Of a stretch of 64,000 bases of DNA, positions 6,136 through 53,324 are shown piece by piece. This DNA comes from Dictyostelium discoideum (Eukaryota), in the NCBI GenBank assembly GCA_000004695.1, contig CM000153.2, positions 2,976,001 to 3,040,000 of the forward strand, read 5' to 3'. Both the position numbers and the translations under genes were made by a program. The notes below the pieces were generated by a model. The model was not told the DNA's origin, did not search any database, and saw only the letters and a list, made by a program, of their open reading frames with translations. How positions within the stretch are numbered: the first letter of the stretch is position 1; each line of letters starts with the position of its first letter.

Positions 6136-7415
6136 TCTATTATTGTTATTATTATAATTATTATTTGTATTATTAAAAAAGAAATTTGTTTGTTGTTCGT
6201 CAGAATTTCTTTGTTTTTTTGAGACATGTTCATCAAGTTCTCTTTGTTTTCTTTCGAATGGATTTGGTGTTATGTCATCCTTATTAATATCTTTATTTGG
6301 GTTATAACTCATTGCAAATAAATACTGTAAAGAATAAATTTAAAAAAGTAAGAATAATTTTAATTTATAAAAAAAAAACAAAACAAATAATTGAAAAAAT
6401 GATTTTTTTTAAATTACTTACTTTTTCTTTTTTATCATTATTAATTGGTGCTAAAGAAAGGAATCTTGTTGGTTGTGGATTTTTATTTTTTAAAGTTGGT
6501 GTATTGTAATAAGGTGCTCTTTGAAAGTAAAATGAATTCTTTGAAAAGTGATAAGCTGGTGTTAATGCTTGTGATACTAATTTAACACCATCAATACCAA
6601 TTTTATAAGGTGTTTTTAAAAATGTTGGTATACCACTTGTAACATTATTTAATACACCTCTTGACCATTGATTACTTAATAATATATCTATTCTTTTATC
6701 TTCACCTTCTTTTATAATATTATCAATTTCTGATTTTATAATTGTATTTTCTTCCTATATATATATATATATATAAATCAATTGGATAAATTAATAATAA
6801 TTTAGAATGATAATAAAACATATATTTATAAGCGGTATACAAACTTACATTTGATTGAATTTTAATTGGATAATCAATTTTACCAGAAAGATAAGCAATA
6901 TTTAAATTTGAAATATTTTTAATTCCGCATTTACCTAAATAAGTGATACCTTTACATAACTCACCTGTTTCTTTATTAACAAATTTTTTAATATATTTAA
7001 AATCTGATTGACTATATGCAATGAAGTAAGTTGGTATTGGTACATTTTCAATTTCGTCTTTATATGGTTGTAATTCTTTTGGAAATGTTAATTCATTTTC
7101 ATCTTTATCATCTGAATTATTATTATTATTATTATTGTTATTGTTATCATTATCATTATTATTTTCATCTTTATCATCTGCATCATTACTATTGTTATTA
7201 TTTTCATTACTAATATTAGTTGTTGGGTGGTATGGTTCAAAAAATGAACCTACACATAATAATAATGAAAAAGGTCCATTTGATTTATTAACTGTTGAAA
7301 CTCTTTTAAAAAGAGCATTAAAACTTCCACCTATATCACCACAAACCAATCTGTTATTTATTAAAAAAAAGAATTAGGATTTAAAAAAAAAAAAAAAAAA
7401 AAAAATATCTGTTAA

Positions 7416-39638: not shown

Positions 39639-40455
39639 TAATAAAAAAACCATTGTTTATTTGTATAAAAAAAAAAAGATTTAAATTATTTTTGTTAAAT
39701 AGTTTTATTTTATTATTTTTTTATTGTTTTTTATTTTTTTTTTAAAAACATTACTACTTATAATAACATCTTATTATAATAACTTATTAAATCTGTTTGG
39801 GTGGCGAATCATGTTTTTATCTTGATCATAAGGGCATCAGTTCTAACATTGGGGAATGATTTGTTTTCTACTTGAGTTTGGGATAACAAAATGAATGTAT
39901 ACCTAAATTTCCATAATCATTGTTAAAGAAATCTTGTGAATTTGGTACTGCATTCAATAGAGATCACCTGAACCAATAAACGTTTGACATTTGTTATTTA
40001 AGAAAGTATAATAACATTTGGTAATGGTTTTACAATATAGGGGCATGGGGATCCAATGACAGATCTCCAAAAAAGAAAAAGCCCAAGTAAATTGACCGCG
40101 CTGGTAACTTTGTCACCCCTCACTGGCAGCTGGACATTATCACTATTCCTTACTATCAACCTATCTCCACATTACTTTCTATTGGCAGTGAATGGGAGAT
40201 ACAGGAGGACAGGATAGCCACTGGTATAGTTAATCTTACTTAGGAGGCTTCATTTGGAATAAGTATTACCATTTGCGTTTGTTACTTGACTCATTAGTTT
40301 AATGACATTAACAATTTTGTTAAAAAAATATAATTAAAAAATGAAAAAATTCTAAAACCAATAGACTAAGGTAGATAAACAAAAAAAAAAAGATTTTAAA
40401 TAATTTAAATAATTTTATTTGTATGTTTTTTTTATATTTTTTTTTTATTTCATTT

Positions 40456-41454
40456 TTAAACATTACTACTAATAATAACATTATCAATAAATCTATGAAA
40501 TATATTTGAATAGAATATTTCAATGGTTATATTATCATTTCCAGGGAAATATTTTTCATCTCTATAAACTAAATAAAATCTAAGAGGTATTTTATTATTA
40601 TATAACTCATCATTAAATATTTTTATTTCTTTTTCTATTTTTTTATACTATTTTGTTTGTTTTTTGTTTTTTAAAATAAAATAAAATTTTAAAGATATAA
40701 ATTAATATCTTATTTTAAATCTAATAATAAAATAAAAAAAAACCACTCTTTTTTTTTTTATTTTTTTATTTTTTTTTTTTAAATGTGTTTAAAAACTTAC
40801 TATTCTCATTCTTCTTGAATCAGATAGAAATAAGAAAAATAAAATTGCGCAAAAACCAACCCATATAATACAAAAAATCACAAATGATCCTAATGGGTAG
40901 ACATATGATAAACCAAAAGTAACACCAGGAGATGTAATTAATATAATTAGTACTATTATTAATACTATATTATGAGTGGTTGGATCGTGTAATCTATTTA
41001 AACTTTTAATAAATCTATTGTAATCTCCTTGTGAAATTAAATTCGATATTTCTCTTGGAACTCTACTACGATTTTTTTGAAAATATTCTCTAACACTACC
41101 ATGAACTTTTAATTCCACCCTTTTATATTGTTCTTTATATAAATTATATATACTAATTTTATTTACATCTATTATTGGCTCAATATTATTATTTAAATTA
41201 TTATTATTATTATTATAATTAATTGAATTATTATTTATTGAACTATCTAAACTTTTATTCATTAAATCATTATTTGGCTTTAAAATTGTATCATGACTTT
41301 TACTAATACTATTATTTAAATCGTTACTTATAATACTATTATTTATATCGTTATTTGAATTTTCATTATGATTTATATTATTATTTATATTATTATTATT
41401 AATTCCTATATCACTTAATTTTTTTTCATCAATCATGGTGATTTCTTTTATCAA
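40456..41454 (-). CDS. member P1 of a 3-gene family of small Asn-rich two-TM proteins
   Basis: Main ORF is 41454-40789: Asn-rich N-term, a conserved motif RVPREISNLISQGDYNRFIKSLNRLHDP, then two hydrophobic helices. A canonical AGA ATA|GTAAGT donor at ~40806 and an aaaatag acceptor at ~40641 would add a 3' exon 40640-40456, encoding YKKIEKEIKIFNDELYNNKIPLRFYLVYRDEKYFPGNDNITIEIFYSN... That peptide is conserved with the region downstream of P2. Alternatively the ORF simply terminates at 40789 (..RRMRIVSF*). Confidence 0.55.
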
Positions 41455-42260
41455 GAAAAAAAAAAAAAAAGGTTTTCCTTTTTTTTTTTTTTTTTTTTTA
41501 TAATTTATAAATATTATTATTTATTATTATTTTGTTATAAATATTTATAATTAATAAAAAATAAATTTTAAAAATAAATTTTAAAAATAAAAAAAAATAA
41601 ATTAAAAAGAATATGAAACACAATTATATTTTTTAATTATTTTTATTTTTTTTATTTTTTTTTATATAACAATTATAAATTTATATTGAGAGTCTTTTTA
41701 AATAATAATTAATTTAAATATTGTGAGTGTAATTTAAATTATTGCACAATAAAAAAAAAATTATAATTATTTTCAAATTGTAAAATATCAAAAAATACTT
41801 TTTTAATTTTTTCACACACAAACACTATCTCTCATTTTGTCTTTGTTTTTTTTTTTTTGTACTTGGTGGTAGTGAAATTTAAAAAAACAAATAAAAATAA
41901 ATAAAAAATAAATAAAAAAAAAAAAAAAAAAAAAAATTAAAAATTACAAAAAATAATTGTATTATATCTTGTTGGCCACGCCCACATAAATTATATATAT
42001 ATATAATATATATTATAATTTATATATATATATAATTATTTTGCGATTTATATTGTTTTTCAATATTATACAACCACGTGACCTGTAAAATCCAACATAT
42101 CATTTCTTATATATATATTTTATAAAAAAAAAATGAAACATAGGTTTATTTTTATATTTATAATTTTTTATTTGTGGTGATAGTAATTTATCATAGATAG
42201 AGATATATATCATACAAAAATGTTTATTTTATTTTTTATACTTTTATTTATTTTTTGTTT

Positions 42261-42983
42261 TTATTCATTTATAAAAGTAACTTCAATTGAAATTTTATCA
42301 AAACCAGGTACAACATGATTCTCTTTATAAATTAATCTGAATAAAATAGGTATTTTTTTATTTATTAAAAAGGAATTATAATTTAAAATAATTTCTTCAA
42401 TTTTATAATTCTTTTTTTTATATAATACAAAATATGTTAATATTACTATATTTATAAATAAAATAAATTATTTAAAATTTATACAAACAATTCTTTTTTC
42501 AATTAATCCATTGGTTAAAATAAATATTGCAATATAAAATAATAAAGTTAAACAAATTCCAAATGCAAGTCTAGGTGAAAATGTGAATACTATAAAGAAT
42601 AACGGAATAATCAATATCATTGATAATATCATTAAAATTAACATTATTTGATAATAAATAGGTAATCTTTTATTATTTATTTTAACAATAAATTGTTTAT
42701 ATAATTCTTCCTCAACAATTAAATGTTGGATTTCATTTGGTATTTCATTTGAAAAATAATTTTTATATGTCCCATTTGGTTGGATTTCAAATGTTAATAT
42801 ATTATTTTCATTTATACTTTCATTAAAACTACTTTTTAAACACTTTTTAATAGAACTATTACTATTATTATTATTATTATTATTAATATTATTTTTATTA
42901 AAAACTATAGTATTTTTTATTTCAATTTCACAAATTTGGTCTTTAATATTTAAATTTTGGTTTTCTGTGATTAAGTTATTCAT
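42261..42983 (-). CDS. member P2 of the small two-TM family
   Basis: ORF 42983-42468: Asn-rich N-term, motif PNEIQHLIVEEELYKQFIVKINNKRLP, two TM helices, ends ..EKRIVCINFK*. The 60 codons after the TAA stay open in the same frame and encode NYKIEEIILNYNSFLINKKIPILFRLIYKENHVVPGFDKISIEVTFINE*. This aligns to the P1 3' peptide: KIP(L/I)xF(Y/R)L(V/I)Y(R/K)...(F/V)PGxDxI(T/S)IE(I/V). An ATT|GTTTGT...aaaaaag intron of 79 nt would join them in frame. Confidence 0.5.
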
Positions 42984-43559
42984 TTATTATTTTAATTATT
43001 ATTAGAAATAGAATTTTTTTATTTTTTTATTTTTTTTTATTTTTTTTTTTTAAAAATAATAAAATATAATAAATGGATTTAAAATAATTTTAAATATTAT
43101 TGGTTTGAATGTCATATATATTTACATTCACCATTTATTTGTTCAATTAATATTTTAAATAAAAAAACAAATAAATAAAAAAAAAAAAAACACTAAAAAT
43201 TTTAACCCCTAAATCCATGTATCATTTAAAAATAAATGTTATCATTTTTTAATGTTACCATTTTAATTTTATTGTTAATTTATGATTGGATATTTTAATT
43301 TCCAATTGTTCATATTTTATATTCATAATCATAATAAATTCTATATACCGGTTGTACTCTTTAAATTCAAAAAAGTTTGTTAAATATTGAATGATTACAT
43401 TCTAACTCCTCTTATTTACTATTATGGTCTATCTTTTATATTTATAATTATAAAAATATTTTTTAATCTCATTTTTTATAAATTAAATAAAATATAGCAA
43501 TAAACTGCGGTTGAAAAATCAAAAATAAAACCAATGATATTGAAATTTAGAAATGTAAT

Positions 43560-43659
43560 NNNNNNNNNNNNNNNNNNNNNNNNNNNNNNNNNNNNNNNNN
43601 NNNNNNNNNNNNNNNNNNNNNNNNNNNNNNNNNNNNNNNNNNNNNNNNNNNNNNNNNNN
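43560..43659. other. assembly gap (100 N)
   Basis: A run of N. It lies exactly where the 3' region of family member P3 would be. Confidence 0.99.
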
Positions 43660-43758
43660 TCCAATTCAATTTGGTCATCCTTTTTTATATTTTAATATAT
43701 TTTATGTTTTTAGTATTTTTACTTTTAAATTTTATTATTATTATTATTTTTATTAATA

Positions 43759-44199
43759 TTATTTAATAAAATTATCAAAACAAACATTTTTATTTCTATA
43801 TCCTGAAAAAATTAAAAAACATGTAATAAATACTGGGATGGCTCCAAATGGTATAATATAATATAGAGAATGATTTTTAAAAACTAAAAAAAAAACCAAT
43901 GGGAAAATTAAAATTGTTGTTATGAATATTAAAATTATTAAAATAAAAATATATTTTGGATGAATTAGTTTATTTATTTTTTTAATAAATTCATAGTATC
44001 TATTAGGATTTATTAAATTTGAAATTTCTTTTGGAACATTTTTATTAAAATTATTAAAAAGCTTCGTTGAGCTTTTAAGTATTATAATTTCTTCTTCATC
44101 ATTTATTTTATTTTCGCTAATATAATTATTATTATTAATATTTGTAGTTTTATTATTATTATTATTATTATTATTAATATTATTTTTATCAACAGACAT
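43759..44199 (-). CDS. member P3 of the small two-TM family (3' part possibly lost in the gap)
   Basis: ORF: polyN N-term, motif NVPKEISNLINPNRYYEFIKKINKLIHP, two TM helices, ends ..NKNVCFDNFIK*. It carries the same GTTTGT at the position homologous to P2 (AAT|GTTTGT). Confidence 0.55.
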   Translation of the reverse strand: MSVDKNNINNNNNNNNKTTNINNNNYISENKINDEEEIIILKSSTKLFNNFNKNVPKEISNLINPNRYYEFIKKINKLIHPKYIFILIILIFITTILIFPLVFFLVFKNHSLYYIIPFGAIPVFITCFLIFSGYRNKNVCFDNFIK

Positions 44200-44294: not shown

Positions 44295-44688
44295 TAAAAT
44301 TTATGGGGGTAGAAAAAAATTTTGAAAAAAACCAATTAAAAATGGATCCTTAAACAATAATTTTTTTTTTTTTTTTAAATTCAAAAAATTTTTTAATTTT
44401 CTTTTAATTTTGGAATAAGTTAAAAAAATTTTTTTTTTTTTAGTTTTATTTACTAATTTATTTATTAAAAAAAAAATAAAAATAATAATAATAATAATAA
44501 AATTTTTTGGGTTTTTTTATTTAAAAATTCAATAAAATTTTTAATTTTAATTTTTTTTTTTCAACCTCCCCACCATAAAAAAAGATTATTTTAATTTTTA
44601 TTAAGGAGCACCGGCTGGGAATTTTTTTTTTTTTTTTTTTTTGAGTCATTAAAAAAAGTGTATTTTCATTTTTTTTTTTTTTTTTTTT

Positions 44689-44780
44689 AAATGCTTTGTC
44701 ATTTGTTTTTTAAATGCTTTGTCATTTGTTTTTTAAATGCTTTGTCATTTGTTTTTTAAATGCTTTGTCATTTGTTTTTT
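44689..44780. repeat. 4 x 23-bp perfect tandem repeat (aaatgctttgtcatttgtttttt) ~90 bp upstream of the ATG at 44871
   Basis: The unit starts at 44689, 44712, 44735 and 44758. All four copies are identical. Confidence 0.95.
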
Positions 44781-44870
44781 ATAGTTTAGATAAAAAAAAA
44801 AAAATGTATAAATTATAATTTTTATACCAAAATTATTAATTGAAAAATTAAAAATAAATAAATAAATAAA

Positions 44871-46010
44871 ATGAAATTAGTTAATATTTTTATAATGCTT
44901 GTTATTTTTTTAATAACATTTTCTGTATATAATAAAATTTATCCAAATAATAGTAATACTAGTAGTAGTAGTAGTAGTAGCAGTAGTAAATATGAAGATT
45001 TTCAAATAAATAAAGAAATAAAAAACCAAGATTATTGTAGAATTGAGTCAATGGATTTTTCAAAATTAAATGAAGAATTAATAATAGAGAATAGAGGTAT
45101 TGCTGATATTATTGTTGGTGATAAAGATATAGAAAACATTAATTATATTGGTTTAGATTCATTTAAATGTTCATTAGGATTCAATGGAATTTATTTGACA
45201 CCATCAAATATTTGGAATGTCATAATTTTAGGTTTAAATAAATTGGTTAACCCAATGAAATACTCTTCATTAATTAATGAAAAGGATCAAACTTTAATAT
45301 TACAAAATTCAATTTTTAAAAATAATAATAATAATAATAATGATCAAATTGAAAAGATTTTAATTGAAGAAATATCAAAAAAAATAAATCCAACTTTCAA
45401 ACAACTCTTAATACCAAAATTTGAATCATCAACATTAAAAGATGGATTAATATTTTTAACAAATGCAATTGGAAAGAGGAATGGTGTATATGATTATGGT
45501 ATGATAGATTGTAAGGTTCCTTCATGTTATGTTAATGAAAGTTTGCCAAAGGATATTCAAATTTTGGGTAATATAGAAGATTATGAAAAAATGTTGATTA
45601 ATATTAAATCGATTTATGATCTTTTATATGAAGATTTTAATTTGGATGATACATCATTCAAACTTTTTGAATGGTATGGAAAGAATACATTCATTATAGA
45701 ATCTATTATCAAATATATGCGTGATAAGTCATTTAAAAATATGGATTTATATTATTTTATTAATAAATTCCATTCATCAAATTCACTAAATGGTTTTTTA
45801 AATGATGCAAGAGGTTTTTCATATATTCCAATTGAAATTGTGAATGGAACTGATTTAGTGTATCCAACAGGAACAAAAATAAATTTATTTGCTGGTCATT
45901 TTGCTTCAAATATCTTATTACCAAAATCTATTCATGGTGGTTTAGCAATCGTGGAACCTACAATCAATTGGGTCATTACAAAATATCGAATGTTCAGTTC
46001 AATAATTTAA
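44871..46010 (+). CDS. hypothetical secreted/type-II membrane protein, 379 aa, single exon
   Basis: An N-terminal hydrophobic signal/anchor (MKLVNIFIMLVIFLITFSVY), a polySer tract, then a low-complexity-free globular region with scattered Cys. I recognise no family. Confidence 0.55.
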   Translation: MKLVNIFIMLVIFLITFSVYNKIYPNNSNTSSSSSSSSSKYEDFQINKEIKNQDYCRIESMDFSKLNEELIIENRGIADIIVGDKDIENINYIGLDSFKCSLGFNGIYLTPSNIWNVIILGLNKLVNPMKYSSLINEKDQTLILQNSIFKNNNNNNNDQIEKILIEEISKKINPTFKQLLIPKFESSTLKDGLIFLTNAIGKRNGVYDYGMIDCKVPSCYVNESLPKDIQILGNIEDYEKMLINIKSIYDLLYEDFNLDDTSFKLFEWYGKNTFIIESIIKYMRDKSFKNMDLYYFINKFHSSNSLNGFLNDARGFSYIPIEIVNGTDLVYPTGTKINLFAGHFASNILLPKSIHGGLAIVEPTINWVITKYRMFSSII

Positions 46011-53252: not shown

Positions 53253-53324
53253 CTCCCTGTCCGGGAATTGAACCCGGGCCTTTCGCGTGACAGGCGAAAA
53301 TCCTCACCACTAGACCAACAAGGA
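53253..53324 (-). tRNA. tRNA-Asp(GUC): tRNA-Asp (anticodon GUC), 72 nt, no intron
   Basis: Minus strand: TCCTTGT-TG-GTCT-AGTGGTGAG-GATT-T-TTCGC-CTGTCAC-GCGAA-AGGC-CCGGG-TTCAATT-CCCGG-ACAGGGA-G. The 7-bp acceptor stem has one G-U. A box TGGTCTAGTGG, B box GGTTCAATTCC, anticodon loop CT-GTC-AC. It is nearly identical to the canonical eukaryotic tRNA-Asp. Confidence 0.92.

Follow-up and report, generated by a model that had tools for sequence, protein, structure and literature searches.

The window analysed here is a 64,000-nucleotide stretch of Dictyostelium discoideum DNA (contig CM000153.2, positions 2,976,001 to 3,040,000), and its source strain is AX4. Between positions 40456 and 44199 it carries three small paralogous genes, all on the minus strand, which we will refer to as P1 (DDB_G0285249), P2 (DDB_G0285229) and P3 (DDB_G0285301); exon 1 of P1 is 100% identical to DDB_G0285249. 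All three have so far been labelled hypothetical. They share one layout, in which a poly-Asn head is followed by a conserved motif, a pair of transmembrane (TM) helices and, encoded on exon 2, a conserved C-terminal peptide. The original prediction, made from the letters of this DNA, had recognized three minus-strand paralogues with one architecture, and both the gene models and a family hidden Markov model (HMM) uphold that description. It had also been unable to assign either the motif or the C-terminal peptide to a described family. On the evidence of homology and fold, these are very probably the N- and C-terminal halves of one divergent Erf4/GOLGA7 (GCP16) domain (PF10256). A match to a named family was what the original prediction itself took as removing the novelty of the genes, and that novelty is now largely, not wholly, removed. 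The full account, in which P1, P2 and P3 form a tandem trio within a divergent, dictyostelid-expanded branch of the Erf4/GOLGA7 family, with a DHHC-partner role that we infer, is likely. The outcome is a useful re-annotation, that of a divergent transmembrane variant of the Erf4/GOLGA7 family, and not a new kind of system.

Similarity to the Erf4/GOLGA7 family

Sub-threshold matches to PF10256, for which the gathering score is 29.3 bits, are given by P3 exon 1 (E 0.0017), by four of the four window-family cores (best E 6e-4) and by six of ten distant relatives. In these native sequences only the N-terminal third of the profile is covered, since the alignment is broken by the long hydrophobic hairpin. 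Constructs from which the first transmembrane helix (TM1) had been deleted in silico were made for ten proteins, namely the three paralogues and seven relatives. Erf4 is the top Pfam family for all ten, with E-values from 5e-7 to 8e-3 and scores of 16.6-30.1 bits, and the match runs as a single stretch from approximately position 4-19 to position 93-106 of the 116 in the profile. One construct exceeds the gathering score (30.1 versus 29.3 bits) and another lies 0.2 bits below it. A profile built from 15 sequences and searched against 177,635 PDB sequences ranks human GOLGA7 first (E 0.0045, two collinear stretches). An hhalign comparison with vertebrate GOLGA7 is likewise collinear, with a P of 0.0016 obtained against a shallow GOLGA7 alignment of near-identical vertebrate sequences (Neff, the effective number of sequences, 1.4).

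Structure prediction with AlphaFold2 (AF2) on an alignment of eight sequences gave a mean predicted local distance difference test score (pLDDT) of 58, and Foldseek found no match to that model in the PDB. On the 15-sequence alignment, with no templates, the P2 core was modelled with a pLDDT of 86 and a predicted template modelling score (pTM) of 0.72. In core numbering, this model comprises a strand (2-8), a helix (33-47), a second helix (50-76), a long helix (78-123) and two further strands (128-134 and 146-154), which corresponds to the topology b1-a1-TM1-TM2/a4-b2-b3. When it was searched with Foldseek against 350,542 PDB chains, the top two matches were both GOLGA7 chains (8hf3_B, probability 0.95, and 9oa6_B, 0.85), the next match having a probability of 0.06. 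In the published topology of GCP16 and Erf4, three antiparallel strands (b1', b3', b2') form a sheet, a1' and a4' are cytoplasmic helices, and a further two helices are inserted into the membrane; the elements follow one another as b1-a1-a2-a3-a4-b2-b3, and no helix is reported to be transmembrane (doi 10.1101/2022.12.12.520165). The sheet, the two cytoplasmic helices, the two-helix membrane hairpin and the order of the elements are all found in the AF2 model. The absence of a transmembrane helix is the feature that does not carry over, and it makes the main difference: each paralogue has two hydrophobic segments of 22-27 residues, with 19-residue Kyte-Doolittle maxima of 2.3-3.2 versus 1.41 in human GOLGA7.

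Read against this model, the motif (V/I)PxEIxxLI..Y..FI..(L/I)N is predicted to correspond to the loop and to helix a1' in the Erf4 domain; a2' and a3', which dip into the membrane, would be replaced by the two TM helices, and the C-terminal peptide would supply the cytoplasmic a4' equivalent together with a b2'-b3' hairpin that pairs with the N-terminal strand. In the case of P2, the N-terminal half of the domain is placed at 42666..42803 (beta1 at 42783-42803, the IPNEIQHLI loop, and helix alpha1 at 42666-42710), and TM helix 1 (residues 109-135, 42579..42659, Kyte-Doolittle peak 3.16) appears in the AF2 model as the counterpart of the membrane-inserted alpha2' of GOLGA7. P2 fits the motif in the form originally quoted for all three paralogues only loosely (IPNEIQHLI...FIVKINNKRLP). 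Exon 1 would thereby contribute the variable poly-Asn head, beta1, the motif loop and helix, and a hairpin of two full-length TM helices, and exon 2, which starts inside the long helix, would contribute the cytoplasmic continuation of the second helix followed by the beta-hairpin. The N- and C-terminal halves would come together on one face of the membrane, presumably the cytosolic one, to assemble the three-stranded sheet and two helices.

Human GOLGA7/GCP16 (8HF3 chain B, 9OA6 chain B; PF10256) resembles the Dictyostelium proteins in its small size and in the order of beta1, alpha1, membrane helical hairpin, cytoplasmic helix and beta-hairpin. By eye, two patterns can be followed through both, 'F..(K/E)(F/V)P.E(L/I)...I....(F/Y)...(V/I)..LN' and '(Y)EK(V/I).K.(V/I)..(Y/F)(I/N).(E).N.K', and the final strand reads VIEITIY in GOLGA7 as against TIEIFY in P1, SIEVTF in P2 and EIEITY in P3. 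GOLGA7 has no TM helix, whereas the Dictyostelium proteins have two as well as their poly-Asn heads; identity between them is only 13-15%, and the Pfam scores of the latter are sub-threshold. A Cys near the start of the second TM helix in P1 (FCIIWVGFC) and P2 (GIC) is aligned with the 'CLAC' of GOLGA7, and the Cys of P3 is elsewhere (ITC). In GOLGA7 the S-acylated cysteines are Cys69 and Cys72, at the start of the second membrane helix. Yeast Erf4 (8HFC chain B), of the Erf2-Erf4 Ras palmitoyltransferase, differs in its long N-terminal extension, its two extra strands and its lack of a TM helix, and it matches the Dictyostelium proteins much more weakly than GOLGA7 does.

An exhaustive profile search of 1.84 billion representatives returned only 16 proteins at E <= 0.001, one of which is a 1,023-aa repeat protein matched over only 25 profile residues. 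The other new matches (E 1e-19 to 7e-4) show the layout of beta1, motif helix, two-TM hairpin, helix and beta-hairpin. Relatives occur in D. purpureum (F0ZWK0 and F0ZWK2, which are an adjacent tandem pair, F0ZPB3 and F1A692), among further D. discoideum paralogues such as DDB_G0290155, in the rotifer Adineta steineri (A0A816BRG0) and among metagenome proteins. Where their sources name them at all, it is only as hypothetical or uncharacterised, and most have sub-threshold Erf4 matches. Some of these two-TM relatives differ from P1, P2 and P3 by an added N-terminal domain or by Q/P-rich tails. A sub-branch from D. purpureum and D. discoideum (P0015, P0017, P0018 and P0020, including DDB_G0290155) has a conserved N-terminal domain of approximately 120-190 aa (MESNII.WLNN...) before the Erf4-like module, and this extra domain has no Pfam match.

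Exon structure, splicing and coding constraint

P1, P2 and P3 are almost certainly spliced two-exon genes, as judged from sequence comparison, each with one phase-0 intron in the same alignment column (after ...MRI in P1, ...KRI in P2 and ...NKN in P3). Full-length tblastn and locus blastn searches were swamped by poly-Asn and A/T-rich matches, and the family HMM was used on six-frame fragments instead. Among all stop-free six-frame fragments of the window only five matched, at E 1e-40 to 1e-20, namely exon 1 of each gene and the two second exons that are visible (the latter at E 7e-24 and 8e-21). They lie far beyond chance, because the next best fragment reaches only E 0.13, and no fourth copy of the family was found within the window by this search. 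Three genomes were compared, namely AX4, D. discoideum strain GCA_054859355.1 (L001) and D. dimigraforme (L002); the orthologous loci of the latter two contain all three genes in unchanged order.

In P1, exon 1 (40801..41436, HMM E 9e-35) runs from its ATG through the poly-Asn head, beta1, the VPREISNLI..FIKSLNRL helix and the two TM helices to ...SRRMRI in phase 0. The start had been set at 41454, which is a TTG that opens the mechanical open reading frame; the ATG is at 41436. An intron of 153 nt follows (40648..40800, GTAAGT...AG, 90% A+T, with an in-frame TAA), and then exon 2 with its stop codon (40456..40647; YKKIEKEIKIFNDELYNNKIPLRFYLVYRDEKYFPGNDNITIEIFYSN...; HMM E 7e-24), which is present in P0001 and P0002. 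The spliced product has 275 aa, and the annotated protein P0001 is 97% identical to it. P2 has exon 1 at 42489..42983 (ending ...GLIEKRI in phase 0, HMM E 8e-39), an intron at 42411..42488 (78 nt, GTTTGT...AAAAAAAAG, 92% A+T, with an in-frame TAA at 42468-42470) and exon 2, including the stop codon, at 42261..42410 (NYKIEEIILNYNSFLINKKIPILFRLIYKENHVVPGFDKISIEVTFINE), to which the model assigns the cytoplasmic end of the long helix, beta2 (42327-42347) and beta3 (42267-42293). Its spliced product of 214 aa is identical letter for letter to NCBI protein KAM9942561.1, which comes from another D. discoideum assembly.

P3 has exon 1 at 43786..44199 (ending ...GYRNKN in phase 0, HMM E 3e-40) and an intron of 106 nt, that is 3n+1, at 43680..43785 (GTTTGT...AAAAAAG). 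Its 3' part had been thought to fall in the assembly gap (43560..43659, 100 N). It is mostly lost there and the P3 product is therefore incomplete, but the first 20 nt of exon 2 remain visible at 43660..43679 (GATGACCAAATTGAATTGGA, 'DDQIEL'). The orthologue from L001, P0008, shows exon 2 in full (...NGIPIKFNIIYSKNPGNKFVTEIEITY...). The gap flanks can be aligned with L001 as far as 6546 and again beginning at 6822, so that the gap corresponds to approximately 275 bp (L001 6547-6821), which contain the final 160 nt of exon 2 of P3 together with 3' flank. Annotations from D. citrinum and from other strains include P1 and P3 products of full length that carry the C-terminal peptide.

As originally described, the donor at the homologous phase-0 position is GTTTGT in both P2 and P3, and in P1 it is GTAAGT. 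These donors are kept in all three genomes, and in the P2 intron both the donor and the acceptor are unchanged in L001 and D. dimigraforme. The introns measure, in AX4, L001 and D. dimigraforme respectively, 153, 141 and 129 nt for P1, 78, 91 and 108 nt for P2, and 106, 109 and 125 nt for P3, which is never a multiple of three. With 90-97% A+T, the introns of the three genes can be set beside a Dictyostelium survey of 17,300 introns, with a median of 103 nt and 89% A+T (PMC2483917), relative to which their lengths are ordinary for the genome. The P1 intron length is a multiple of three in all three genomes despite in-frame stops, and this may be chance (1 in 9).

For the junction in P2, the original prediction had weighed three options: a 79-nt intron spliced from a GTTTGT donor, readthrough of the stop codon, or recent decay into a pseudogene. 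The intron is the option that the protein KAM9942561.1 and the intron lengths in the three genomes bear out, and it joins the C-terminal peptide to the TM exon, although its actual length is 78 nt (42488..42411) and exon 2 is in frame with exon 1 in AX4 because it is 78 nt and not 79. This in-frame position, together with the 68 codons (42467..42264, where 60 had been counted) that stay open after the TAA, is what would recommend programmed readthrough of the TAA at 42468-42470 as the route to the peptide. Such readthrough is extremely unlikely. The L001 interval is 13 nt longer, so that exon 2 is in frame +1 and other stops occupy frame 0; the D. dimigraforme interval of P2 contains two in-frame stops; the P2 interval is intron-like, being 92% A+T and of varying length among the three genomes; and the homologous P3 junction changes frame in every genome (106, 109 and 125 nt), the A+T content of these intervals being 92-97%. 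Readthrough cannot yield the conserved peptide, because exon 2 is out of frame in L001 P2 and in every P3, and the frame-keeping length of the P2 intron is a coincidence of the AX4 allele. Pseudogenisation of one or more copies, with the peptide as a decaying remnant, also seems very improbable. It could draw on the non-consensus donor of P2 and P3 and on P3 being the least constrained of the three (dN/dS, the ratio of nonsynonymous to synonymous substitution rates, 0.68 in exon 2 and 0.51 in exon 1). Against it, exons, splice signals and phase are intact in D. dimigraforme as well as in both D. discoideum strains, a tandem pair is also found in D. purpureum, and every dN/dS value is below 1.

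Comparison with D. dimigraforme gives dN/dS values of 0.09 for P1 exon 2 and 0.26 for its exon 1 core, 0.27 and 0.36 for the same parts of P2, and 0.68 and 0.51 for those of P3, for which the L001 copy of exon 2 was used. All three genes are under purifying selection, P3 least. The claim that the downstream peptide is coding is borne out by the exon 2 values of P1 and P2. The argument first made for it, of a conserved protein over diverged DNA, is weak for the P1/P2 pair, in which the second exons agree at 41% of residue and 60% of base positions and the paralogue dN/dS of 0.7-0.9 is saturated and uninformative; it is the comparison between orthologues that brings out the coding constraint. 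The peptide would be constrained because it is the second half of a split globular domain.

Two AX4 reference models look wrong. That of DDB_G0285249 (215 aa) runs into the P1 intron and stops there, without exon 2. That of DDB_G0285229 (227 aa) removes a 39-nt intron at 42484..42446 (GTATAA..ATATAG), which is not conserved, because its acceptor reads ATATAA in L001, and which is implausible. The model of DDB_G0285301 is interrupted by the assembly gap. With the exons given above, all three AX4 gene models are corrected. In new Dictyostelium assemblies, models skip the second TM helix or truncate the gene (L002 4242-5002 and 6001-6798; P0007, P0010 and P0012); to illustrate, the D. dimigraforme P3 orthologue is modelled with only 127 aa, and P0010 joins ...AIG to NLKIEE. 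The gene finder apparently avoided the GTTTGT donor in these assemblies, and manual splicing at GTTTGT gives full-length proteins again. A conserved non-consensus donor of this kind can lead gene prediction astray, as has apparently happened in several of the new assemblies.

Possible function and competing explanations

To our knowledge, few accessory subunits of DHHC palmitoyltransferases have been described, and nearly all of the work on them has been done in yeast and mammals. The characterised members of the fold, in the pairs Erf2-Erf4, ZDHHC9-GCP16 and ZDHHC5-GOLGA7, are all accessory subunits by which DHHC S-acyltransferases are stabilised. By analogy, it is plausible, if just short of probable, that P1, P2 and P3 partner DHHC palmitoyltransferases, which is the likeliest of the roles considered. 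They would attach to a DHHC S-acyltransferase and either stabilise the enzyme or regulate it, as Erf4 does with Erf2 and GOLGA7 with ZDHHC9 or ZDHHC5, and a true TM hairpin would anchor them in place of two short inserted helices and lipidation. Placement in the Erf4/GOLGA7 family gives three hypothetical genes and their relatives a testable function, and it would mean that the fold tolerates the conversion of a membrane-dipping hairpin into a transmembrane one.

Several observations weigh against parts of this account. No native family member reaches the Pfam gathering score: P3 exon 1 scores 18.7 bits against Erf4, the P1 core 15.8 and the relatives at most 26.0. The hairpin-shortened constructs are artificial, with boundaries chosen by the analyst, and the Foldseek matches have an E of only 0.04 and TM-scores of 0.44-0.53. 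Use of the GTTTGT donor is drawn from comparative evidence and from the gene models of other groups, and the DHHC partnership from the fold alone. In the HMM alignment, the DHHC9-contacting Tyr76 and Tyr86 of GCP16 stand opposite an aliphatic and a basic (Arg/Lys) position, respectively. There is no DHHC gene among the long open reading frames of the window, and no literature was found on DDB_G0285249, DDB_G0285229 or DDB_G0285301. Nor was any found on Erf4/GOLGA7 or on DHHC accessory subunits in Dictyostelium.

The scores of the native sequences, all of them under the gathering score, would be expected if P1, P2 and P3 made up a lineage-specific two-TM family that is not homologous to Erf4 and whose Pfam and fold matches were convergent or driven by composition. 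DUF2207_C (PF20990, gathering score 33 bits) offers an example of such a match, as it hits four of the four cores at E-values similar to those of Erf4, with scores of 14.8-23.2 bits that are below its threshold and fall on the TM hairpin. The two families part when TM1 is removed: the DUF2207_C matches are gone in all ten constructs, whereas the Erf4 matches extend to nearly the whole profile, collinear over beta1, alpha1, the hairpin and alpha4. We therefore regard non-homology as improbable. A more serious contender, although still an unlikely one, accepts the Erf4/GOLGA7 fold and detaches it from DHHC enzymes, such that the proteins would be small, lineage-specific integral-membrane adaptors with another partner or a part in membrane organisation. 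The GCP16 tyrosines that contact DHHC9 are not conserved in the alignment, a fully transmembrane hairpin implies a membrane geometry unlike that of the complexes described so far, the family has expanded and evolves quickly (P3 dN/dS 0.5-0.7), and some relatives have the extra N-terminal domain of 120-190 aa (P0015, P0017, P0018 and P0020). Nevertheless, each characterised member of the fold is a DHHC accessory subunit. The contact residues themselves are a weakly defining set: the GCP16 residues that contact DHHC9 are K11, F13, R16, Y18, Y76, Y86, R118 and R121, of which K11, F13, R16, Y18, R118 and R121 lie outside the aligned stretches, and those of Erf4 differ from those of GCP16, yet both proteins bind DHHC enzymes alike.

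A broader and distinctly speculative picture can also be drawn. P1, P2 and P3 might represent an integral-membrane class of Erf4/GOLGA7 proteins, evolved in dictyostelids and a few other eukaryotes such as bdelloid rotifers, in which the re-entrant hairpin has turned into a two-TM anchor. The class would number no fewer than five or six members in D. discoideum, of which three stand in tandem here. Individual paralogues might each work with a DHHC enzyme of their own and determine how stable it is or which substrates it selects, and the conserved weak GTTTGT donor in two of the three genes could allow regulated intron retention, yielding truncated proteins without the beta-hairpin.

Flanking DNA and strain variation

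Among the neighbouring genes in the window are those for APC4, a DUF4419 protein, fucose pyrophosphorylase and an aromatic amino-acid lyase, as well as RCC1 and OGT-like genes. At 44679-44781, in the divergent intergenic stretch that separates P3 from the DUF4419 gene at 44871, lies a perfect-looking tandem repeat of 23 nt (TTTGTTTTTTAAATGCTTTGTCA) in 4.5 copies. One copy is present in L001 and none in D. dimigraforme, and the repeat is therefore a strain-specific minisatellite. D. discoideum strains also differ greatly in the length of the N-terminal poly-Asn tract of P2 (42983-42800 versus L001 7415-7640), with products of 214 versus 242 aa, a difference typical of unstable AAT repeats within coding sequence.

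Just downstream of P1, at approximately 40000-40300, an island of 32-50% G+C lies in intergenic DNA of 10-20% G+C. It has no long open reading frame and no Rfam match at E <= 1, only its distal part aligns to L001 (76%), and nothing in it aligns to D. dimigraforme. This island might be either a piece of a mobile element or an insertion specific to the strain. Across the window, Rfam and ARAGORN yield a single match, a tRNA-Asp (GTC) at 53253-53324 on the minus strand.

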